A DNA stretch of 44,676 nucleotides from Thermoplasmata archaeon (GCA_030038895.1 JASHQX010000030.1:1-44676); one strand, 5' to 3'. Counted from the first letter of the stretch, positions 13,161 to 42,148 are shown. The notes: a model not told the origin generated them from the sequence alone. Program-made: numbers and translations.

Positions 13161-13874
13161 CTAGCCCGCGAACCAGGGAAGCCGCGCGGCCGGTCCGCTC
13201 GGTTTCAGGACGAGCAGGTGGAGGTTCGAGCCGGGGTCGCCCGGTGCGTAGCTATCCCGGAGCGCGAGTTGGTAGAGGATGAACAACGCCTCCTCGTCCG
13301 ACTGAACCCCGAGCGAGCGGTGGACGTCGATGCCGAACCGGCTCCGAAGGATTCCGAGGAGCTCCTCGAAATCGATCTGACCCGACCCTTCGGACGACTG
13401 CGCCCGACGGAAGAGACCCGCGACGATCCCTGTCGCGAATCGGAGCACCTCCTTCGGGGAGGCGGGGCGGAGGTGGAAGTGGGGGGGCTCGGCGCCGCGG
13501 TCCGCCGGCGGGACCACTAGGATCGAGACCTCGTGGTCGACCGTCGTTCCCGGGGAGTGGGCGAGACGGGCCCACGCCGCCTCCGCGGCGTCGTCCGTCG
13601 GAACGACGAAGATCGCCCGAGTTGCGTGCGGCCGTCCGGCGGAGAGGCCCTCGACCCACCGGTCAATCCCCTCCGAGATCGTGGTCTCCCCTCCCCGGGG
13701 GAGGAAGACCGGGAACGTCCGGCGCGGTACTCCGGACTCCTGGACCCAGAACGCCGGCTCGACCGGCGCATGGCGCAGGCCGGGCGGCACACGGGAGTAA
13801 CCGAGACGCTTCAGCACGGTCTCGGCGGTCCGAAGTCGGTGGGACGACCCCCCGGCAGGGTCGGATTCGGGCAT
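13161..13874 (-). CDS. Hypothetical protein (237 aa)
   Basis: ATG start and coding-like GC3. I recognise no family motif. The N-terminal AETVLKRLGYSRV...AIFVVPTDDAAEAA is only loosely reminiscent of restriction-endonuclease-like folds. Confidence 0.55.
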   Translation of the reverse strand: MPESDPAGGSSHRLRTAETVLKRLGYSRVPPGLRHAPVEPAFWVQESGVPRRTFPVFLPRGGETTISEGIDRWVEGLSAGRPHATRAIFVVPTDDAAEAAWARLAHSPGTTVDHEVSILVVPPADRGAEPPHFHLRPASPKEVLRFATGIVAGLFRRAQSSEGSGQIDFEELLGILRSRFGIDVHRSLGVQSDEEALFILYQLALRDSYAPGDPGSNLHLLVLKPSGPAARLPWFAG

Positions 13875-13935: not shown

Positions 13936-14871
13936 TCATAGCGGGCCTCGAACCCCCACTCCGAGGAGCGGGGCGTTCGCCGCGATCGCCAAGATTACGA
14001 ACAGTAGGTACGGCCCGGAGTAGATGAATCCCCGCCGCGCCACGCGAGAGCTCACCTCAGTCCAGAGCGGGAGCGTGAGCGCGACGAACCCCGCCCCGAG
14101 CCCGACCAGGGCGAGGAGGACCGGCCAGGCGACCGCCCCGGTCCATCCGAGGAGGAGCGCCGCGGGAACGAGGAGCGCCGCCGAGACGACAACGACCCTT
14201 CCCGAGAGCGCGACATCGTCCATCCGCGGGAGCATCGGGAGGCCCGCGCGCTCGTAGTCGTTCCGGAGCAGGAGCGCAAGGCTCCAGAAGTGCGGGGGAG
14301 TCCAGAGGAAGACAAGGAGCGCGAACGCGAGGACCCCGGGGGTCCAGCTGCCGACGGCCGCGGCCCCTCCGGCGAGCGCGGGGGCGCTCCCGGCAAACCC
14401 GCCGATCACGATGTTCCAGCTCGAGCGGCGCTTGAGCCAGAGGGTGTAGACGACGACGTAGGTGAGCCCGCCGAGGAGGATCGAGAACCCGGTCAGCGGG
14501 TTCAGGAAGACCGTGCCGGCGCCAATCCCGAGGACGAGAAGGGCGAGCCCGAGCGCGAGGACGAGGTCCCCCCGGACGATCCGTTCATCGGGCAGCGGGC
14601 GGTGGCGGGTCCGCTTCATCCGGCGGTCGACGTCCCGGTCGAGGTAGTGGTTGAGCATCGCCGAGCCCGCCGAGGCGGCCGCTCCCGCGCCGACGAGGAT
14701 CGCGAGGCGCACTAGGTCGATCGTGCGGGGATCCGCGAGGAGGAACCCACCCACCGCGACGAGGCAGATGAGGGCGGTGATCCCCGGCTTCGCGAGCTCG
14801 AAGAGGTCCCGGGCGAGGCGTCGGGATGGGAGTTCGGACGCTGCGGCGATGGGTCCGTTGGGAGCGGTCAT
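13936..14871 (-). CDS. ctaB: Protoheme IX farnesyltransferase (heme O synthase)
   Basis: UbiA-family polytopic protein with NHYLDRDVDRRMKRTRHRPLP. Confidence 0.9.
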   Translation of the reverse strand: MTAPNGPIAAASELPSRRLARDLFELAKPGITALICLVAVGGFLLADPRTIDLVRLAILVGAGAAASAGSAMLNHYLDRDVDRRMKRTRHRPLPDERIVRGDLVLALGLALLVLGIGAGTVFLNPLTGFSILLGGLTYVVVYTLWLKRRSSWNIVIGGFAGSAPALAGGAAAVGSWTPGVLAFALLVFLWTPPHFWSLALLLRNDYERAGLPMLPRMDDVALSGRVVVVSAALLVPAALLLGWTGAVAWPVLLALVGLGAGFVALTLPLWTEVSSRVARRGFIYSGPYLLFVILAIAANAPLLGVGVRGPL

Positions 14872-14901: not shown

Positions 14902-15489
14902 CTAGCCATTTCGGGGCTGGCCGAACGGCACCTCCGATTTCGAGGGGGGAACTTCGGGGCGGGGCAGGGCCATGCTCGGTGGGGAGTCGGAGACCTCGCT
15001 GGCCGCGCGGCGGACCCAGGCGACCACACGCGGAGGCAACTCGCGTAGGTTCGCGAGGACCGTAAGGAGGAGAAGGAGTCCGAAGAGCGCGGTCGCGATC
15101 CCGAGGTGGAGGAGGATGAACGGGAGCTCGAGCCCACTCTCGACGACGAGGCCCCCGAGGAGCGCCTCGGTCACGACCAGCGCGAGCGAGCCGAACGAGA
15201 GGCGGAGGAGGACCTTGCGGCCCCGCTCGTAGACGAGCGCGAGCAGCGTTACTACGAGGACCGAGACCGAGAGGAAGAACGCCGCGACGCGGTGGCTCCA
15301 TTCGGCGACCACCCCACCTTGGAACGCGGGAAGGAGGTTCCCGTTCCCGTAGCACGACGGCCAGTCCGGGCACGCGAGTCCGTTCCCGCTCGCCATCACA
15401 TTGCCGCCGAGAAGGATCGTCGTGTAGCAGAGGAGGCACGCCATCGCGGTGGCGACCCGGAAGAGCTCGTGGCCCCGCGTCCGCGCCAT
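14902..15489 (-). CDS. ctaA: Heme A synthase, short 4-helix archaeal type
   Basis: GGNVMASGNGLACPDWPSCYG motif, four hydrophobic helices, His in helices (EWSHRV, ILLHLG). It starts 4 nt after the coxI stop. Confidence 0.8.
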   Translation of the reverse strand: MARTRGHELFRVATAMACLLCYTTILLGGNVMASGNGLACPDWPSCYGNGNLLPAFQGGVVAEWSHRVAAFFLSVSVLVVTLLALVYERGRKVLLRLSFGSLALVVTEALLGGLVVESGLELPFILLHLGIATALFGLLLLLTVLANLRELPPRVVAWVRRAASEVSDSPPSMALPRPEVPPSKSEVPFGQPRNG

Positions 15490-15493
15490 CGGA

Positions 15494-17170
15494 CTACGGC
15501 GCCTCCGTCGGGGTCGCGGTCGGCAACGGGACCGGGACGCGCGCGGGTGCCGGAGCGGCGACCGGCCCGGTCATCTTGACCGAGAGCTCCTCGCCCCACG
15601 GGTCCGGGACCGTGACCGGCTCCCCCCCGTAGTAACTATAGACCATGTTGAACAGGAAGACGAGCTGCCCGATCCCGAGGACGTACGCCCCGAGGGTCGA
15701 GAGGAAGTTGAGCGCCTGGAAGTTCCCGTTCCAGAGATACGTGTAGACCCGGCGGGGCATCCCCTCCGCGCCGAGGATGAACATCGGGAACAGGAGGACG
15801 TTGGTCCCGACGTACGTCATCAAGAAGTGGATCTGGGCGAGCCGCTGGTTGTACCAGCGGCGCGTGATGATCGGGAAATAGAAGTAGATCCCGGCGAAGA
15901 GCGCCATGAGGGTCCCGCCGAGCAGGATGTAGTGGAAGTGCGCCACGACGAAGTACGTGCCGTGGTAGAGGTAGTCGATCGGGATCGACGCGAGCATGAG
16001 GCCGGAGAGGCCGCCGATGACGAAGCCGGTGATGAACGCGACGCAGAACCACATCGGGATCGCCATCCAGACGCGGCCCCCCCACAGGGTCGCGACCCAG
16101 TTGAACGTCTTGACCGCCGACGGGACGGCGATCGCCATCGTCGCGAGCATGAAGACGAACCGGATGTTCGTCGAGATTCCCGTGACGAACATGTGGTGCT
16201 CCCAGACCGCGAAGCTGAGCACCGCGAAGACGCCGAGCGCGATCGCCATCGCGCCGTAGCCGAAGATGTCCTTGCGCGCGAGCTTCGGGAGGATCGTCGA
16301 GACGAGACCGAAGGCCGGCAGCACCATGATGTAGACCTCGGGGTGCGCGAAGAACCAGAAGATGTTCTGGTAGAGCAGCGCGCCGCCGAGCGGAGTGCCG
16401 TTGACCGCGGCGAGGATGTGCGTCCCGAACACGCGGTCGCTCAAGACGAACGTGAGCGCGATCGAGAGGGACGGGAGCGCGAAGATGAGGAGGACCGAGT
16501 TGATCAGGATCGACCAGACGAAGAGCGGCATGTTCCAGTAGTGCACGCCCGGGGCCCGGTGCTTGGTGATCGTGACGAGGAAGTTGATCGCCCCGAGCAT
16601 CGAGGAGACCGTGAGGATGTGTAGGCCGAGGACCCACAGGTCGATCCCGTCCCCCGGGATCTGAACGGAGAGCGGGACGTAGCCGGTCCAGCCGGCGTTA
16701 GCGTTCGAGAGGATCAGGATGACCCCGGCCGGCGGGAGCATCCAGAACGCGATCGCGTTGATCCGCGGGAGCGCCATCTCCCGCGAGCCGATCATCGACG
16801 GGACGAGGAAGTTGCCGAAGCCGGCGAGGACCGGCATGATGAACATGAAGATCATCAGGACCCCGTGCATCGTGAACAGGGTCGAGTAGACGTCCGGGGT
16901 GATCCCAAGGGTCGTCTGGGGGTCGAGGCCGAGGCCCTGCACGAACCCGAGATCCGTCCGGATGAGGGTCGCGTAGATCCCGCCGATGAAGAAGAAGACG
17001 ATCCCGGTGACGATGTACATGATCCCGATCCGCTTGTGATCGGTTGTGAACATCCACGTCTTCATCGTGCGGACGAGCCACGTCCCCTGGTAGGTGAACA
17101 GGTAGACGAGGAACGAGGCGAGCGCGACGATGAGGCTCACTTCGACCACGGGGACCGTGACGTTGGTCAT
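15494..17170 (-). CDS. coxA: Heme-copper oxidase subunit I
   Basis: [14 protein letters not shown]..., [40 protein letters not shown] lies 7 nt before the ATG. Confidence 0.95.
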
Positions 17171-17183
17171 CGCATCCTCCCGG

Positions 17184-17564
17184 TCATCCCGCGATAAGAC
17201 CCCCTAGTATGTACGCGATCGCGGCCGCGGCGATCACGACGATGAGGATCCGGAGGAACCGCGCCTCGGCCTCCTCCGTGATAGGCCCGGGCGGCGTCGG
17301 CTTGAACTTCCGTCCGAGCGGCCACGACCGGTAGGTTCGGTCCACGATGTGTACGATCAGCGCGGCCATCAGAAACATGAGCGCGACCGCGATCCCGAAC
17401 GACTCCTGGGCACCGGGGCTCGTGATCGGCCCGAGCCGGACAGCGTAGACGATCAGCACCGCGATCCCGAGGAGCATCAGGACAGTGACGGCGGTGTAGA
17501 GGTCCAGCACCCGCTCGCGCGCCGCGCGCACGTCCGAGGGAAGGGCGGGGGCGGGGCTACTCAA
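17184..17564 (-). CDS. Membrane protein (about 126 aa, 3 predicted helices), unassigned respiratory-operon component
   Basis: Three hydrophobic segments. TTG start overlapping the upstream stop by 8 nt (GTG starts further in are possible). Confidence 0.55.
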
Positions 17565-17820
17565 AGAGCTCTACCCTCCGCTGGTTCGCGCCCCGGTATC
17601 GGTCGACCCGATAGAGGATCCCGGCGATGAACAGGAATGCGAGGAAGGCCATGGTCCCCCCCGCGGTGGCCACCAGGAGGTACCAGAGGTTCCCGGCGGC
17701 CGCGCCGAGGATGCCGTAGACGAACGTCGCACCGCCCGCGGTCCCGACGATGAGGAAGCCGAGAAGGACTCCCCAGAGGGAGGTGGTGTTCCACTTCGGC
17801 GATGCGGGGGGGCTATTCAC
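17557..17820 (-). CDS. Small membrane protein (about 87 aa, 2 helices), unassigned
   Basis: GTG 17820 overlaps the cytochrome b stop (GTGAATAG). The sequence is WGVLLGFLIVGTAGGATFVYGILGAAAGNLWYLLVATAGGTMAFLAFLFIAGILY. The track start at 17883 would overlap cytochrome b by 70 nt. Confidence 0.5.
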   Translation of the reverse strand: MNSPPASPKWNTTSLWGVLLGFLIVGTAGGATFVYGILGAAAGNLWYLLVATAGGTMAFLAFLFIAGILYRVDRYRGANQRRVELFE

Positions 17821-19162
17821 TGGACTTGACCTCCGACGCCCCGACCGGGGCGGCTGGCGCCGCGGTTGGGAGTGCGTACACACCGAGGAACGGCGTCCCG
17901 CGCGCGGCGAGCCGTTTGAGGTAGTTGCGGCGGTACCGCCAGTAGAAGAGCGCGACCGCGATCCCGGTCACAAGGAAGAGGGGCCCGAGCGTCTCGGCGA
18001 CGAGCATCGGGGCGATCTGCACCCCCGGCGTCTCGCCGCCCCAGACGGTCATCAGAACGAAGAACTCGAGGAAGGACGTAGCGAGCCAGATGAAGAACGG
18101 CCGGTCCCGCGGGTGGGTCCGCTTCGAGCGATCGAGGTACGGCAGGAACAGGAAGTACAGGATCAGGACCGTCGTCACGCCGATCGCGAGGACGGGGGTC
18201 ACGTACTGGAAGTCAACGAACTTGAACAGCCAGAGGAAGTACCAGTCTGGCTCGGTCACGACGCCCGCGGCCGCGAGGTTCCCGACGTACGTGGGAAGGC
18301 TCCACGGCCAGAGCGCCGCAATCCCGAGTAGGAGCCCGACGTAGAGAAGCCCCCACTTCGTAATGTACCAGAAAATGTGGGGCATGAACGGGACGTGGGA
18401 CTTGTCCTCCTTCTCGTTGTACCGCCGACGCTGGGTCGGGTCCGAGGTCGCCGGCGGCGCGATCCCGTGCGACTCGAACAACGCAATGTGAGCGTAGAGG
18501 AGGGCCGCGAGACCGAGCGGGATCAGGAGGACGTGCGCATCGAACATCCGGGAGAGGAGCCCCTGCGCCGTTCCATCCGCGAGGATGAACGGCCCGAGGA
18601 GCGGGCCGATGGTGGGGAGGCGCAGCGCGAGGACAATCCCGACGTTCGTCGCGTTGTAGGAGAGCTGGGTGTACGGAAGGAGGTAGCCGGTGAACCCCAT
18701 CCCGAGGGTCAGGATCATGAGGAGCGTCCCGACCATCCAGGAGAACTCGCGTGGCGCCTTGTACACCCCGAGGTAGTACCCACGGAAGAAGTGGACGAAC
18801 ATGAGAAAGATCATCGCGTAGGCGCCGTAGAGGTGGCTTGTGAGGAGGAGCGAACCCATCGGAACGGAGTGGAGGATGTAGTAGGTCGAGCACCACGCCG
18901 CCGGCGCTGCCGAGTACGCCCCGACGGGCTGTCCGCACGCGGTGAGGGTCGGGGCGGTGCTTGGTTGGTAATAAAGGAGGAGAAGCGCGCCCGAGACGAC
19001 CTGGTAGAGGAACGCGTTCACGACGAACGCGCCGGTCCAGTACGAGGGCTTGAACGTGAACTCCGGCTGCGGGCGGAGCGCCCACTTCTTCATCGAGGTC
19101 CGGTCCTCGACAAAACCCCAGATGCGGTTCAGCGTCCGATTGTACCAGTTCGAGAACCCCAT
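17813..19162 (-). CDS. Cytochrome b (fused b6/subunit IV-like) of a bc-type complex
   Basis: 449 aa and polytopic, with an N-terminus typical of archaeal SoxC/SoxN-like cytochrome b (YWTGAFVVNAFLYQVVSGALLLLYY...). It starts 10 nt after the Rieske stop, with a GGAG in between. Confidence 0.8.
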   Translation of the reverse strand: MGFSNWYNRTLNRIWGFVEDRTSMKKWALRPQPEFTFKPSYWTGAFVVNAFLYQVVSGALLLLYYQPSTAPTLTACGQPVGAYSAAPAAWCSTYYILHSVPMGSLLLTSHLYGAYAMIFLMFVHFFRGYYLGVYKAPREFSWMVGTLLMILTLGMGFTGYLLPYTQLSYNATNVGIVLALRLPTIGPLLGPFILADGTAQGLLSRMFDAHVLLIPLGLAALLYAHIALFESHGIAPPATSDPTQRRRYNEKEDKSHVPFMPHIFWYITKWGLLYVGLLLGIAALWPWSLPTYVGNLAAAGVVTEPDWYFLWLFKFVDFQYVTPVLAIGVTTVLILYFLFLPYLDRSKRTHPRDRPFFIWLATSFLEFFVLMTVWGGETPGVQIAPMLVAETLGPLFLVTGIAVALFYWRYRRNYLKRLAARGTPFLGVYALPTAAPAAPVGASEVKSSE

Positions 19163-19172
19163 CGCCGGACTC

Positions 19173-20000
19173 CTACGTCGGGAAGTTGCACAGGATGACC
19201 GGCGTCTCTTTCACGAGCTGCGAGGTCGCGCCGACCCCGTAGTCGCCCTGAAGGGTGTTGAGGTGCCCATTGACCGGCGGGCTCCCGGGACGCATCCCAT
19301 TCGCGAAGATGTTCCCGGCCGCGTCCGTTTCGAGGAGCACCTGCGGGAGCGGGAGCACGGCCGGCCCGGTCAGGTTCGCGGCCGAGTTCGTGACATCGTA
19401 GGTCGACCCGTGGCACGAGCAGTGGATGTAGAAGGTGTGGCCGCCCGGCGTTTCGGGGCACGTACCGGGCGGATAGAACGCGATCGCGGGTGCGGGGCAC
19501 CCCAGGTGCTGGCAGATCGCGCTGTAGGCGACGATCGACTGGTGCGTCCCGATCCCGTACGGGACGTTCTCGGCGCCGTTCGAGCCGTTCGGCGTCCCGC
19601 TCGCCGGGTAGAGATTGAGTAGGAAGTTCGGCTCGTTCTCGAGCGGGTAGTAAAACAGGTAGAGCTCGCTCGTCTCGACGTTGTACTCGCTCTCGACCTT
19701 CGCGACCGTGAGGGGACTACCGTCGGTGTCGATCAACTGGACCTTGGGATAGCTCGAGATCCCGATCGTGGGGGGCTGGACGAACTGGAGCGTCCCCCCG
19801 ATCAATCCGCCCGCCCCGGCGCCGACGAGGCCGGCGACCGCGAGCAGCTTCAAGACGTTGCGCTTCGTTTCGTCGACCTCCTCGCCGCCGTTCGAGGGCA
19901 GGGAGGCGACCCGCCGAATCCGGCCGACAGGAAAATCGAACCGGGACGAGCGGAACGACGCCATCGGGCAGGTCGCGGCGCAGGCCGGGAAGTTCGGCAT
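19173..20000 (-). CDS. Rieske 2Fe-2S protein
   Basis: Box I CQHLGC and box II CSCHGS. KRNVLKLLAVAGLVGAG is a signal-anchor with a Tat-like KR motif. ATG 20000 overlaps the upstream stop (TGATG). Confidence 0.9.
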   Translation of the reverse strand: MPNFPACAATCPMASFRSSRFDFPVGRIRRVASLPSNGGEEVDETKRNVLKLLAVAGLVGAGAGGLIGGTLQFVQPPTIGISSYPKVQLIDTDGSPLTVAKVESEYNVETSELYLFYYPLENEPNFLLNLYPASGTPNGSNGAENVPYGIGTHQSIVAYSAICQHLGCPAPAIAFYPPGTCPETPGGHTFYIHCSCHGSTYDVTNSAANLTGPAVLPLPQVLLETDAAGNIFANGMRPGSPPVNGHLNTLQGDYGVGATSQLVKETPVILCNFPT

Positions 20001-20185
20001 CACAGCGTCCTCCCCGAGGTCTCGGGCCGGGCGTCGTCGACGCCTTCGGGCGAAGGGACCCGGGCGTCGCCGGGAAGCTCGGCGTTTTCGCTCCCGCGAT
20101 AGACCGCCCAGGTGATCCCGATCCCCATCAGCACGACGAGGATCTCCGTGAGTGTGACGATCTGGTCCGGTGAAAGGCCGCTCAT
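20000..20185 (-). CDS. Small (61 aa) single-pass membrane protein, unassigned
   Basis: MSGLSPDQIVTLTEILVVLMGIGITWAVYRG... ATGA overlap with the upstream gene. The track ORF (to 20488) is an Arg/Pro-rich extension. Confidence 0.5.
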   Translation of the reverse strand: MSGLSPDQIVTLTEILVVLMGIGITWAVYRGSENAELPGDARVPSPEGVDDARPETSGRTL

Positions 20186-20593: not shown

Positions 20594-21427
20594 TCAACCG
20601 ACCCCTGCCGCGGCCACCGGGCCGCGACGTTTGGCGCCCAACCGTTCCCAGCGCGCCGCGAAGTACGCCCCGCCGAAATAGAGCCCGATCATCGGCGCCG
20701 CGATGAGGAGCATGGTGATCCCCGAGTTGTCCGGCGTGACGATCATCCCGAAGACGAGCGCGCCAAGAACCGCGGCGCGCCAGTGCTGACGCCAGGTCGA
20801 GGACCGGACGACGCCCATCCGGGTGAGCGCATAGATGAACACCGGCAACTCGAACACAACGCCAAATGCGAGGGAGTAGAGCAGGGCGAAGGTGACGAAG
20901 TCCTGCACTCCGAGGTAGGGCTGGAGGCCCATCGCGGCGACGTACCGGAAGAGGAGGAGGAAGGTGAACGGCGTGAGGATGAGAAGCCCCCCCACGGTCC
21001 CGATCGCGAAGAGGACCGTCGCGGGAATCCCGATCGAGCGCAGGAGCGCCCGCTCGTTGCGTCGGAGCGCGGGAACGAGGAACGCGCCGACCTCGTGGAC
21101 GATCCAGGGCATCCCCACGATCGCGGTGAGGAGCAGCCCGATCTCCATCTGAACCATGACCGAGTCGCCCACCCCCACGTTGAGGAGCTTCACGCCCGGC
21201 GGGAGCATCCACGACACCATCGCGTGGAAGACCTGCGCAGTGACGTTGTAGAACGGGCTGGGCCAGGGGTACACGAACGGAACCGAGTGCCCGAAGACCG
21301 AGACCGTGATCGGGCGTAGCTCGAAGAGAAGCAGGAAACCGAAAATCGAACCGAGGACGAGCGCAATGCGGACTAAGCGGCGTCGGACCTCCCCGAGTAC
21401 CTCGAGGATTCGGCTCAAGTCGCTCAT
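20594..21427 (-). CDS. tatC: Sec-independent protein translocase TatC
   Basis: Six-helix protein with ...LAFGVVFELPVFIYALTRMG... and ...IVTPDNSG... motifs. Confidence 0.85.
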   Translation of the reverse strand: MSDLSRILEVLGEVRRRLVRIALVLGSIFGFLLLFELRPITVSVFGHSVPFVYPWPSPFYNVTAQVFHAMVSWMLPPGVKLLNVGVGDSVMVQMEIGLLLTAIVGMPWIVHEVGAFLVPALRRNERALLRSIGIPATVLFAIGTVGGLLILTPFTFLLLFRYVAAMGLQPYLGVQDFVTFALLYSLAFGVVFELPVFIYALTRMGVVRSSTWRQHWRAAVLGALVFGMIVTPDNSGITMLLIAAPMIGLYFGGAYFAARWERLGAKRRGPVAAAGVG

Positions 21428-22985: not shown

Positions 22986-23720
22986 TCACCCCGTCGGCGT
23001 GAGCGGAGGCGAGGGAGGATGCGGCGATTCTCCGGGGGTCGGAGGCTCCGCGTACCCGAGGCGTTCGGGTGGCATCTCGAACTCCGAGCCGCGGCGCCGG
23101 CCGACGACGAATCCGAGGACGATCGCGATCACCACCATGCTCACGATCGTCCCGATGATAATGAAGACCGCCGCCCCCGGACCGGTCGCACCGGAGGAGA
23201 CCGTGAGGTTCGCGGGGAGGACCTCGCCGAAGGCGATGAAACCGTACATCCCCGAGGCGAAGTGCCCGGGCTCCTCGCAGACGAACTCGTACCAGCCGAC
23301 CCCCGGCGACGTGAACGTCTTGGTGACCACGTCCCCGGAGCCGGTCACGTTGATGCTGACGAGGGCGCCGTGCGCCGCGAACTCCGCGGGGATGTCGGCG
23401 GACGGCCAGGGGAGGACGGTTCCTTCCAGGTTCAGGATCGAGAACGTGTGGGGAAGCGTGTCGGCGTCCGTGACGGTGACGGTGACCGTGGTGTTGGTCG
23501 CGACCTGCTGGAAGGTGTTGGGGTCGAACATGAACGGCGCGGTCGTCGTGACGTCCACCGTCGTGGTAGTGTCGACATGGGCCGAGGCGGCGCGAGCCTC
23601 CTCGGTCGCGACCCAGCCGCCCCCCACGATGAGCAGCGCTACGCTCACGAGGAGCGTGACCAACGTGCGGGCCCTCCCTCCTCGAATCGACATTCCCATT
23701 CTCGCCGACGCGAATCGCAC
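22986..23720 (-). CDS. Sulfocyanin/halocyanin-like type-1 blue copper protein with a C-terminal membrane anchor
   Basis: Cu ligands are HTF...CEEPGHFASGM. There is an N-terminal signal/anchor and a C-terminal helix AAVFIIIGTIVSMVVIAIVLGFVV. Start is GTG 23720 or ATG 23699. Confidence 0.8.
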   Translation of the reverse strand: MRFASARMGMSIRGGRARTLVTLLVSVALLIVGGGWVATEEARAASAHVDTTTTVDVTTTAPFMFDPNTFQQVATNTTVTVTVTDADTLPHTFSILNLEGTVLPWPSADIPAEFAAHGALVSINVTGSGDVVTKTFTSPGVGWYEFVCEEPGHFASGMYGFIAFGEVLPANLTVSSGATGPGAAVFIIIGTIVSMVVIAIVLGFVVGRRRGSEFEMPPERLGYAEPPTPGESPHPPSPPLTPTG

Positions 23721-23806: not shown

Positions 23807-23828
23807 TTCGTACGTGGGGAATATGTAG
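23807..23828 (+). promoter_or_regulatory. TTCGTACG + N6 + ATATGTAG upstream of coxII
   Basis: ttcgtacg tgggga atatgtag. The ATAT begins 30 nt before ATG 23851, giving leaderless geometry. Confidence 0.45.
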
Positions 23829-23850: not shown

Positions 23851-24078
23851 ATGCGCCTTCGCCGGGGTCTCGAGCGTATCCGAGCCTCGCTTCGCCCGGC
23901 CGGTCTCGCCGTGGCCGGCGGGTTTCTATTCGCGTCCTCGAACCTCCAGGAGACGAACGATCTGGTCTGGACGATGGTCGCGATCGGGGTCGCGGGCTCG
24001 ATCGTGACGTTTTCCTTCCTCGTCTACTCGATCTGGCGATTCCGCGACCCCAAGGCGAAGGGACGGCGGCATGGTTAA
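23851..24078 (+). CDS. Oxidase subunit II, N-terminal fragment (TM1)
   Basis: MRLRRGLERIRASLRPAGLAVAGGFLF...LVWTMVAIGVAGSIVTFSFLVYSIWRFRDPKAKGRRHG*. It ends where the HxN..E..WT loop motif of CoxII begins. Confidence 0.6.
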   Translation: MRLRRGLERIRASLRPAGLAVAGGFLFASSNLQETNDLVWTMVAIGVAGSIVTFSFLVYSIWRFRDPKAKGRRHG

Positions 24079-24532
24079 CAAGTACGAGGTTGCCTGGACG
24101 CTCGCGGTCGTCGCGCTCATCGCCGGGGTCAGCGTGTACTCCACAATCCTGCTCTACCAGCTCGACCAGCTTCCGGGCGATCCGACCGAATACGTCGACG
24201 TCACCGGCCACCAGTGGTACTGGGAGTTCTGCTACCCGGTGAACAACACGTGCTTCAACTCGAGCTACGACGCATCGACGAACACCGTCAGCGGCGGGGC
24301 GTTATGGGCGTCCCCGGGCGCGGAGCTCCAGATCAACGTTACGGGCGCGGACGTGATCCACTCATTCAACATCCCACAGCTCGGCGTGCGGATCGACGCG
24401 ATCCCCGGCCGGATGAACCACTTTGCCTTCCAGGTCCCCACCGTCGCAGCGGGAACCAGCTACCTGATCCAGTGCACCGAATTCTGCGGCGAGTTTCACG
24501 GAACGATGCGCTCGTTCCTCATCGTGACCTGA
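24071..24532 (+). CDS. coxB: Oxidase subunit II, TM2 + CuA cupredoxin domain
   Basis: MVNKYEVAWTLAVVALIAG..., GHQWYWEF, VIHSFNIPQLG, and the CuA site CTEFCGEFHGTM. Its ATG overlaps the stop of the preceding fragment (ATGGTTAA). Confidence 0.85.
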   Translation: MVNKYEVAWTLAVVALIAGVSVYSTILLYQLDQLPGDPTEYVDVTGHQWYWEFCYPVNNTCFNSSYDASTNTVSGGALWASPGAELQINVTGADVIHSFNIPQLGVRIDAIPGRMNHFAFQVPTVAAGTSYLIQCTEFCGEFHGTMRSFLIVT

Positions 24533-24588: not shown

Positions 24589-25620
24589 TCAGGAGTGGCC
24601 ACCGTGTCCACCGGCGCGCCCTCTACGGGGGAAGCGACCAGTGAACGATGCGATAACCGCGAGGAGGACCCCGATCACGAGAAGCCCGCCGGACCCGGCG
24701 AGTACCCAGGTCTCGACGACCGCGGTGCTAGGGGGCGCCGGCGGGGCCGGGACCGGCACGTTGACGTAGAGGAGCCCGTCCATGCCGCTAGCGAAGTGCC
24801 CGGGGACCTCGCAGATGTACTGGTAGACGCCCGGAGCGGCGAGCGTAAAGTTCGCCCAGACGGAGCTGCCGGCTCCCGCCGGCACCGTCGCGGAGACGAG
24901 AGGGGGGTGGGCGGTGAAGTACGAAGTGAAGTTGGTGGGAGAGAGCGTATAGTTCGACTGAGCGGCGAGTGTGAACGTGTGCCCGAAACTCCCCATGTTC
25001 GTCACTAGGACGTCGACCGACTCGGGGAAGTGGGGCGCGGTGACCGCGAGCTCGTTCGGAACGAACTGGAGGGAGTCGGTCGTGGTCTCGTTGAGCCGGA
25101 CCCCTGGACCCGAGAACGTGACGTTGAGGAACCCGAACATTCCGGCTTGGAACTGGAACGGTACGAGCGAGACGAACTCGAACGAGTCGCCGCCGACCGA
25201 CGCGTTGAGCGAGATGTTCGCGTACGCCTGCTGGCCCGGGGCGACCGAGACGTTCGCGAGCGAGCCGTTTTTGGCGAAGAACGACGAGAGCTCCGCCGGG
25301 GTCCAGGAGGTGTTGAGAATGACCCCCGGGACCTTCGAAACGGTGAACGTGTGGTTGTAGTGGCCGAGGTTATCGAGGTGGACGGTGAGGGTCGAGTTCG
25401 TGGCACCGACGAGCGAGCGGGGCACGAACCGCGGCGTGTCGGTCATGTTTACCGTGACGGTCGAATTGCGGCTCAGGGGGCGGGCGAGCCCGACCGATGG
25501 TGCGGAGGGCAGGTGCGTGATCGCCGCCGCGACGGGAAGGGCCAGCGTCGCAAGGAGCAGGCCCGCGGCCAGCCATGGAGCCGCGCGACGCCACGGTCCG
25601 GGATGTCGGGCCTGGCGCAA
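24589..25620 (-). CDS. Two-domain cupredoxin (degenerate N-domain, intact type-1 Cu C-domain), membrane anchored, sequon-rich
   Basis: Domain 2 has GHTF...YICEVPGHFASGMDG. Domain 1 has NHTF...FVSLVPFQFQAGMFG (Cys to Ser, His to Gln). A C-terminal helix is present. TTG start, preceded by AAGGGGGA. Confidence 0.75.
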   Translation of the reverse strand: MRQARHPGPWRRAAPWLAAGLLLATLALPVAAAITHLPSAPSVGLARPLSRNSTVTVNMTDTPRFVPRSLVGATNSTLTVHLDNLGHYNHTFTVSKVPGVILNTSWTPAELSSFFAKNGSLANVSVAPGQQAYANISLNASVGGDSFEFVSLVPFQFQAGMFGFLNVTFSGPGVRLNETTTDSLQFVPNELAVTAPHFPESVDVLVTNMGSFGHTFTLAAQSNYTLSPTNFTSYFTAHPPLVSATVPAGAGSSVWANFTLAAPGVYQYICEVPGHFASGMDGLLYVNVPVPAPPAPPSTAVVETWVLAGSGGLLVIGVLLAVIASFTGRFPRRGRAGGHGGHS

Positions 25621-42075: not shown

Positions 42076-42148
42076 GGGCGCGTAGTCTAGTGGTTATGAC
42101 GTCACCCTGACACGGTGAAGGTCGCCAGTTCGAATCTGGCCGCGCCCA
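42076..42148 (+). tRNA. tRNA-Val (anticodon GAC)
   Basis: Hand-folded 73 nt: acceptor GGGCGCG/CGCGCCC, anticodon arm TCACC-CTGACAC-GGTGA, T arm GCCAG-TTCGAAT-CTGGC, discriminator A. Confidence 0.9.

Follow-up and report, generated by a model that had tools for sequence, protein, structure and literature searches.

Introduction

Subunit II of A-type haem-copper oxygen reductases is usually described as a single polypeptide with two membrane helices and a CuA domain. Here, we describe the subunit II gene (coxB/ctaC) on a 44,676-nt stretch of DNA from a Thermoplasmata archaeon (GCA_030038895.1, JASHQX010000030.1:1-44676; the whole stretch is called the window below). In the window, the coding sequence is divided between two overlapping open reading frames (ORFs), ORF A with the first transmembrane helix (TM1) and ORF B with the second (TM2) and the CuA domain. 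Comparative analysis indicates that the pair very probably represents a conserved, ancient and selectively maintained fission of the coxB/ctaC gene of an A1-type enzyme, with subunit II made as two polypeptides.

Divided forms of the protein have been described elsewhere. In the eukaryotic cox2a/cox2b gene pair, the cut lies between the two-helix membrane part and the CuA domain. Such pairs occur in chlorophycean algae, apicomplexans and scoliid wasps as two complementary mitochondrial or nuclear genes whose products are thought to reassemble (PMC5374615, PMC9895450). In the B-type ba3 oxidases of Thermus thermophilus and Aquifex aeolicus, the helix of a separate subunit IIa (CbaD), encoded upstream, takes the place of the A-type TM1, and subunit II itself consists of one helix and the CuA domain (PMC3128077). 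Subunit IIa is reported to have the opposite polarity to the A-type TM1 and no sequence similarity to it (PMC3128077). For a prokaryotic split between TM1 and TM2 of subunit II, a literature search that did not cover all journals gave only papers on IIa and on eukaryotic cox2a/cox2b, and the passages of the paper describing the Lutacidiplasmatales (PMC9287336) that matched the terms searched make no mention of the split.

Anatomy of the divided subunit II gene

The coordinates of the two frames and their 8-nt overlap had been given in an earlier note made from the DNA sequence alone, and translation confirmed all of them (Table 1). The ORF A product, MRLRRGLERIRASLRPAGLAVAGGFLFASSNLQETNDLVWTMVAIGVAGSIVTFSFLVYSIWRFRDPKAKGRRHG, begins with a basic, hydrophobic, signal-like N-terminus (approximately residues 1-30), followed by an NLQETNDL segment, TM1 and a basic tail, RFRDPKAKGRRHG, and ends in ...SIWRFRDPKAKGRRHG. 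ORF B lies in frame +1 relative to ORF A and terminates with TGA at 24530-24532. Its product reads MVNKYEVAWT...CTEFCGEFHGTM...IVT (also MVNKYEVAWTLAVV...CTEFCGEFHGTMRSFLIVT). The residues H97, C135, E137, C139, H143 and M146 of ORF B are invariant in a 20-sequence alignment and match the CuA site of solved aa3 oxidases.

When either T 24075 or T 24076 is removed, the two ORFs merge into a single open frame, ...RRHGNKYEVAWT... (...GRRHGNKYEVAWT...). The resulting joined protein aligned without a break across the junction to subunit II of the aa3-type oxidases of Rhodobacter sphaeroides and Paracoccus denitrificans, for which structures are solved (E 4e-26), bearing out the earlier proposal that skipping one T restores the CoxII loop. 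At the junction, ...lvysiwrfrdpkak..gr.rhgnkyevawtlavv... of the joined protein is aligned with ...ILYAVWRFHEKRNKvpARfTHNSPLEIAWTIVPIV... of the aa3 enzyme. In the loop motif proposed at the same time, H-x-N-x2-E-x2-WT, the supposedly conserved His is Tyr in 65 and His in only 15 of the 80 sequences that carry the overlap (see below). The match of the joined protein to Thermus ba3 subunit II was confined to the CuA end (6e-06).

Domain searches gave a consistent division. ORF B matched Pfam COX2 (PF00116; 3e-18), ORF A alone had no Pfam match, and the joined protein showed a weak, sub-threshold COX2_TM match over both helices (E 0.08). Neither polypeptide on its own carries the two-helix hairpin together with the CuA domain; alignment of the helices to the canonical hairpin requires the products to be joined. 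Judged from these alignments, the pair is a divided, non-canonical member of the A-type subunit II family (CoxB/CtaC; PF00116 + PF02790). An A-family subunit I partner is present in the same genome: the best solved relatives of the CoxI encoded in the window are aa3-type oxidases (E 1e-128 to 1e-104), and Lutacidiplasmatales coxA genes are classed as A1 (PMC9287336).

The order of parts is identical to that of undivided A-type subunit II (PDB 1M56/2GSM and 1QLE/1AR1, chain B), i.e., signal-like N-terminus, TM1, basic loop, [H/Y]-x-N...E-x-x-W-T, TM2 and the CuA ligands H...CxExCxxxHxxM. The difference is that here the cytoplasmic TM1-TM2 loop is cut by the 8-nt stop/start overlap and the parts are read in two frames. 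Unlike eukaryotic cox2a and cox2b, the window genes are adjacent and overlapping within one operon, and the break in the TM1-TM2 loop leaves TM2 on ORF B.

With the B-type system the locus shares a small separate protein (75 aa) that has one predicted membrane helix and overlaps the start of a gene for one helix plus the CuA domain. ORF A was considered as a member of the B-type subunit IIa family and rejected on several grounds. Both subunit I and the CuA domain of the window best match A-type proteins, with no B-family association found; ORF A is homologous to the A-type TM1, with which it forms a continuous alignment; and its basic tail, read by the positive-inside rule, points to a helix oriented as in canonical TM1, with the N-terminus outside and the C-terminus inside. 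In addition, ORF A encodes 75 aa with a signal-like N-terminus, compared with 34-41 aa for IIa, and the PxGT motif of IIa (PMC3128077) is not in its sequence. Subunit IIa is thereby the closest functional parallel of ORF A but not a homologue, and ORF A is proposed to work like it.

Conservation of the junction and of both reading frames

The comparison set comprised 80 GTDB species-representative Thermoplasmata genomes or loci and the window, 81 sequences in total. The comparison of orthologues in close relatives that had been proposed earlier gave a clear answer: they share the split, with an 8-nt overlap of the same form in 79 of the 80 species-representative genomes (80/81 with the window). 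The overlap reads ATGGTTAA in 66 sequences, ATGGTTAG in 7, ATGGTTGA in 4, ATGGCTAA in 2 and ATGGCTAG in 1. Such recurrence argues that the arrangement of ORF A and ORF B is not due to chance. The fission is found in a soil and peat lineage of Thermoplasmata that includes the Lutacidiplasmatales (UBA184). Conservation of the junction and of both ORFs favours genuine fission into two polypeptides, the first of the four explanations that the earlier note had listed.

The sole exception among the 81 sequences, locus L068 from Candidatus Lutacidiplasmatales archaeon GcC5-34, has ACGGTTAG in place of the overlap. Its junction (L068:2985-3005) reads GGGAGGCGCTACGGTTAGC, with an ACG preceded by GGGAGG; the nearest ATG of frame B on the upstream side lies at a distance of 105 nt, and the 30 nt that follow contain no start codon. 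Six other sequences (L037, L066, L071, L073, L077 and L078) keep the 8-nt overlap and have 2-3 extra ORF B residues after MV (e.g., MVRINKLE, MVKINKLE), their junctions lying ~6-9 nt upstream of the tblastn match start.

The same data bear on two further explanations from that list, a 1-nt sequencing or assembly error and a recent inactivating indel, i.e., a pseudogene in a genome losing respiration. Both would fit the observation that removing just that one T gives a single ORF. Against an error, the same junction is present in two independent assemblies ~99% identical to the window (ENA ERZ27241321 and NCBI GCA_030041595.1), which show scattered single-nucleotide differences and the same ATGGTTAA, one of them with TAT at the window's CAT, as well as in 79 other species genomes from many studies. 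Against decay, both halves are conserved proteins under purifying selection, start and stop codons are kept by selection, and the surrounding respiratory genes are intact. We regard the probability of either event as practically nil.

Constraint on the individual signals can be read from the variation. The ORF A stop alternates between TAA, TAG and TGA, and residue 3 of ORF B shifts in step (N, S, E, D); since the type of stop varies while the ORF B residue follows, the stop codon itself is the constrained feature. Among the 80 overlap sequences, the codon preceding Gly in frame A is NAT without exception (TAT 65, CAT 15). Within the ORF B sequences of these genomes, TAT accounts for 12% of Tyr codons and CAT for 17% of His codons, and because these codons are rare there, the T of NAT must be kept for the ATG of frame B.

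ORF B and ORF A were also recovered separately in database searches. The best 120 homologues of the joined protein, from NCBI, ENA, JGI and Logan assemblies of Thermoplasmata, were all 152-163 aa long and corresponded to the ORF B part alone, with the same MVN start. Small ORF A homologues numbered 17 by single-sequence search and 296 by profile; the 120 of these 296 matches that were listed were all 48-107 aa long, and some carry the JGI annotation 'oxidase subunit 2'. A fused subunit II was found neither among the best 120 homologues of the joined protein nor among the ORF A profile matches listed (120/296). The window's source has no gene call for ORF A, there being no 100% self-match in the ORF A searches, and the two ~99% identical assemblies (L085 and L086, 1094-1500) have none either; in many relatives ORF A is called, as 'hypothetical protein'.

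This lack of gene calls would suit another explanation, in which ORF A is a non-functional or unrelated leftover and ORF B by itself functions as a subunit II with one helix, the situation in B-type oxidases that lack IIa. Single-helix subunits II do exist in the B-type family, and the Geobacillus ba3 enzyme is reported to be active with subunits I and II only (PMC3128077). However, TM1 and the tail of ORF A are free of indels across the whole set, the last ~50 residues being ungapped in 81/81 sequences (consensus TNLQxTxPLVWVMxxISVAGAIVTFAFLVYAxWKFRDPxxxxRR[YH]G), and they are kept in more distant split lineages. The uncorrected pN/pS of ORF A, 0.58, is like that of the TM2 region of ORF B, 0.48, and entropy in ORF A peaks at the third codon positions of frame A. 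The stop codon of ORF A is maintained, a conserved AT-rich box lies upstream of ORF A and not of ORF B, and the profile search found 296 small homologues. These patterns indicate that both ORFs are under purifying selection, and we consider a leftover ORF A very unlikely.

Putative signals for expression and the question of a frameshift

The AT-rich box AATATGTAG, a putative archaeal TATA element assigned by position and conservation only, is present with at most two mismatches in 73 of the 81 sequences, and the first frame-A start codon falls 29-32 nt past the start of the box in 51 of 79. Since the box sits at TATA distance if transcription begins at the start codon, the ORF A mRNA is predicted to be leaderless or nearly so. 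In the window, the box is located within a 130-nt divergent intergenic region between ORF A and the minus-strand cupredoxin gene to its left, the start of which may share this intergenic region.

A purine-rich run precedes the start of ORF B. GGAGG, AGGG, GGGG or a similar run occurs at -16..-5 of the ORF B ATG in 64 of the 81 sequences, and in the window it takes the form of a Shine-Dalgarno-like AGGGA. The ORF A codons -6/-5 read AAG-GGG, CGG-AGG or similar, so that AGGGG or GGAGG falls at -12..-8 relative to the ATG. AGG, a rare Arg codon, is strongly enriched here, with 14/31 Arg codons at ORF A position -5 and 11/77 at position -4, compared with 4/268 in ORF B. GGAGG is likewise found 5-9 nt before the starts of coxI, cytochrome b, Rieske and tatC in the window. 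The run thus bears the signature of a Shine-Dalgarno site for an ORF B predicted to be initiated independently.

We propose that one bicistronic, probably leaderless mRNA carries ORF A and ORF B. The ORF A product would contribute the signal-like N-terminus and TM1, oriented with its N-terminus outside and its C-terminus inside as the basic C-terminal tail suggests, and the ORF B product would contribute TM2 with the CuA domain. TM1 and TM2 would then pack together against subunit I as they do in undivided subunit II. ORF B would initiate at its own ATG, aided by the purine run embedded in the Lys/Arg-Gly/Arg codons of the ORF A tail, and the position of this ATG, 5 nt before the ORF A stop, suggests that translation of the two frames is coupled.

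The junction also has to be compared with programmed +1 frameshift sites at stop codons, such as bacterial prfB (CUU-UGA-C) and antizyme (UCC-UGA-U). In prfB, +1 shifting is stimulated at a Shine-Dalgarno spacing of ~3 nt. A +1 recoding event at the window's GGU-UAA-C, likewise raised in the earlier note, would produce a full-length fused subunit II, either exclusively or beside the two products. The likeness lies in a stop following a sense codon, a downstream ORF in +1 and a purine-rich, Shine-Dalgarno-like run upstream that superficially recalls the prfB site. The 0-frame stop at the shift site and the +1 frame relation are conserved throughout the clade, skipping one T gives the canonical loop back, GGT is kept although it is a rare codon, and L068 lacks the ORF B ATG, yet its ORF B is intact.

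Several features nevertheless argue for initiation rather than shifting. A frameshift needs no ATG, whereas 80 of the 81 sequences retain the +1-frame ATG in spite of the codon bias. The Shine-Dalgarno-like run ends 7 nt before this ATG, at initiation spacing, and ~10 nt before GGT. The shift codon is GGU, or GGC in 3 genomes, neither of them slippery, and under established decoding rules a move from GGU to GUU gives poor re-pairing for tRNA-Gly. No conserved RNA structure that might act as a stimulator was found by RNAalifold across 39 junctions (-2.09 kcal/mol, negligible covariation), the window junction folded no better than shuffled sequences (z-score 0.29), and the sole match in an Rfam scan of the window was one tRNA gene (42076-42148, +). 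In relatives, this loop is interrupted by ATGA or TTGA overlaps, by a +2 frame relation or by spacers that are out of frame, geometries incompatible with such a shift. No fused protein occurs among the homologues listed, though gene callers would not predict one anyway. A programmed frameshift is accordingly judged highly improbable as the route to subunit II.

A milder version, in which GGU-UAA-C doubles as a low-efficiency +1 recoding site that yields fused subunit II in addition to the two pieces, perhaps in a regulated ratio, is hardly more than conceivable on the same evidence. If it were true, L068 with its ACG would be a lineage relying on the fused route, and the locus would be a rare case of archaeal programmed +1 frameshifting in a core respiratory gene. 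Returning to fission, the skip-one-T reconstruction is best read as a fossil of the origin of the split, not as a description of ribosome behaviour.

Proposed origin of the split and more distant relatives

The junction suggests how the fission may have arisen. In an ancestral loop of the form ...R-H-G-N-K-x-E..., insertion of one T would have converted CAT-GGN-AAC into CAT-GGT-TAA-C. This one change would end the upstream part at a new stop and at the same time turn the ATG concealed in CAT-G into an in-frame start for the downstream part, dividing the gene in one step. Each base of the 8-mer would from then on be bound by one frame or the other and the 8-mer frozen, and this dual-frame constraint would account for its fixation across sequences with only ~70% ORF B identity. 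Fused archaeal loops such as ...V-H-G-N-R-R-L-E-V-V-W-T (P0242) and ...H-R-G-N-T-M-L-E-I-G-W-T (P0213) share motif and spacing with the skip-one-T reading of the window, H-G-N-K-Y-E-V-A-W-T. We favour origin by a single-base insertion as the more probable reconstruction, with some reserve.

Four more distant loci (L081-L084, Table 1) have subunit II split in the same TM1-TM2 loop as the window, with junctions that differ from it. Given their +2 frame, spacers and overlaps of TTGA or ATGA, the junctions cannot all be joined by one frameshift rule. Pairwise identities among 150 representative proteins, which are suggestive only and do not amount to a phylogeny, make the window clade and the P0142/P0143 group mutual nearest neighbours, whereas P0226 and P0162 are nearest to fused proteins. 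Together with the L084 cut, upstream of its H-T-K-L-E motif, these identities suggest more than one independent fission in the TM1-TM2 loop.

Several points weigh against the interpretation of the locus as an ancient, maintained fission. The two products, their assembly and their coupled translation are what we infer from gene anatomy, and the signal peptide, topology, promoter and leaderless state are putative. L068 has ACG at the position of the ORF B ATG with ORF B intact, which calls for a near-cognate start, an error or another route to ORF B expression; the first two are simple explanations. Of the 80 overlap sequences, 77 retain T as the fifth base of the 8-mer (GGT/GTT), though GGT and GTT are rare codons, and a preference for Val at ORF B position 2 as the reason would be ad hoc. 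The single-insertion origin is a reconstruction, and the sister group (L081, L082) cuts the loop upstream of the conserved His, which implies either several fissions or later remodelling of the junction.

Genomic context of the split gene

The split coxB is part of a respiratory locus (Table 1) in a window with a guanine plus cytosine (G+C) content of 67.5%. Besides the genes listed, the locus encodes TatA and an AbrB/MazE-domain protein. The CtaA homologue may be a short, half-size archaeal form of haem A synthase. No CoxIII homologue was identified among the window ORFs scanned, and a 237-aa ORF at 13161-13874 (-) had no Pfam match. The earlier note had held that unsplit relatives together with respiratory decay would speak against fission; the relatives are split, and decay at the locus is ruled out by the intact genes for CoxI, CtaA, CtaB, cytochrome b, Rieske and Tat.

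Membrane-anchored cupredoxin-like proteins are encoded on both sides of the split coxB. The 343-aa protein has many N-x-S/T sequons and a C-terminal hydrophobic anchor. Since c-type cytochromes are reported absent in this phylum (PMC9287336), the flanking cupredoxin-like proteins are probably the electron donors to CuA.

Table 1. Coordinates of the split coxB, its putative expression signals and neighbouring genes in the window, and of the more distant split loci (the last four rows, in the numbering of each locus).
Feature	Position	Strand	Remarks
ORF A, N-terminal piece of oxidase subunit II	23851..24078	+	75 aa; ATG 23851, TAA 24076-24078
ORF B, C-terminal piece of subunit II (TM2 + periplasmic CuA cupredoxin domain)	24071..24532	+	153 aa
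8-nt overlap ATGGTTAA	24071..24078	+	ORF B start ATG 24071-24073 and ORF A stop TAA 24076-24078
TM1, ORF A residues ~38-62, LVWTMVAIGVAGSIVTFSFLVYSIW	23962..24036	+	Hydrophobic stretch, limits by eye; aligns to TM1 of R. sphaeroides subunit II
TM2, ORF B residues ~9-29, WTLAVVALIAGVSVYSTILLY	24095..24157	+	Hydrophobic stretch and alignment, limits by eye
CuA ligand motif C135-T-E137-F-C139-G-E-F-H143-G-T-M146	24473..24508	+	Other His ligand H97, in DVIHSF
AT-rich box AATATGTAG, putative archaeal TATA element	23820..23828	+	Starts 31 nt before ORF A ATG
Shine-Dalgarno-like AGGGA	24059..24063	+	In ORF A codons K70-G71; 7 nt upstream of ORF B ATG
CtaB	13936-14871	-	
CtaA (haem A synthase) homologue	14902-15489	-	195 aa; covers first half of 322-position Pfam model
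CoxI	15494-17170	-	PF00115, 476 bits
Small hydrophobic ORF between coxI and cytochrome b	17184-17564	-	126 aa
Small hydrophobic ORF between coxI and cytochrome b	17557-17883	-	108 aa
Cytochrome b	17813-19162	-	
Rieske	19173-20003	-	
TatC	20594-21427	-	
Membrane-anchored cupredoxin-like protein	22986-23720	-	Flanks split coxB
Membrane-anchored cupredoxin-like protein	24589-25620	-	Flanks split coxB
L081	3759-4552		81-aa TM1 ORF, TTGA overlap with TTG start, frame +2; ORF B 54% identical, same synteny
L082	2-860		4-nt spacer, then ~75-aa low-complexity N-tail on CuA piece
L083	3-1045		20-nt spacer containing AGGAG; C-terminal cupredoxin fusion
L084	1-577		ATGA overlap, 41% GC genome; cut upstream of its H-T-K-L-E motif

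Significance

The locus has practical consequences for annotation. ORF A often goes uncalled or is labelled hypothetical, and annotators should treat the accompanying 153-aa CoxB neither as truncated nor as a pseudogene. ORF A probably corresponds to one of the uncharacterized membrane proteins that have been reported from the complex IV locus of Lutacidiplasmatales (PMC9287336). The split coxB would also serve well as a negative control for programs that detect frameshifts or pseudogenes.

Together, our results indicate that a whole lineage of abundant acid-soil and peat archaea uses two genes for A-type subunit II, and that several other lineages also cut the protein in the TM1-TM2 loop. If the proposed origin is correct, the locus would be a clear case of a gene divided in one step by the insertion of a single base, after which the 8-mer was frozen by dual-frame constraint. 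ORF A would represent an A-type counterpart of the separate B-type IIa helix, one that is homologous by descent to the A-type TM1. The arrangement implies that subunit II can receive its TM1 in trans; this is relevant to the insertion and assembly of the CuA domain and the helices and makes the split coxB useful for studies of oxidase assembly and evolution.

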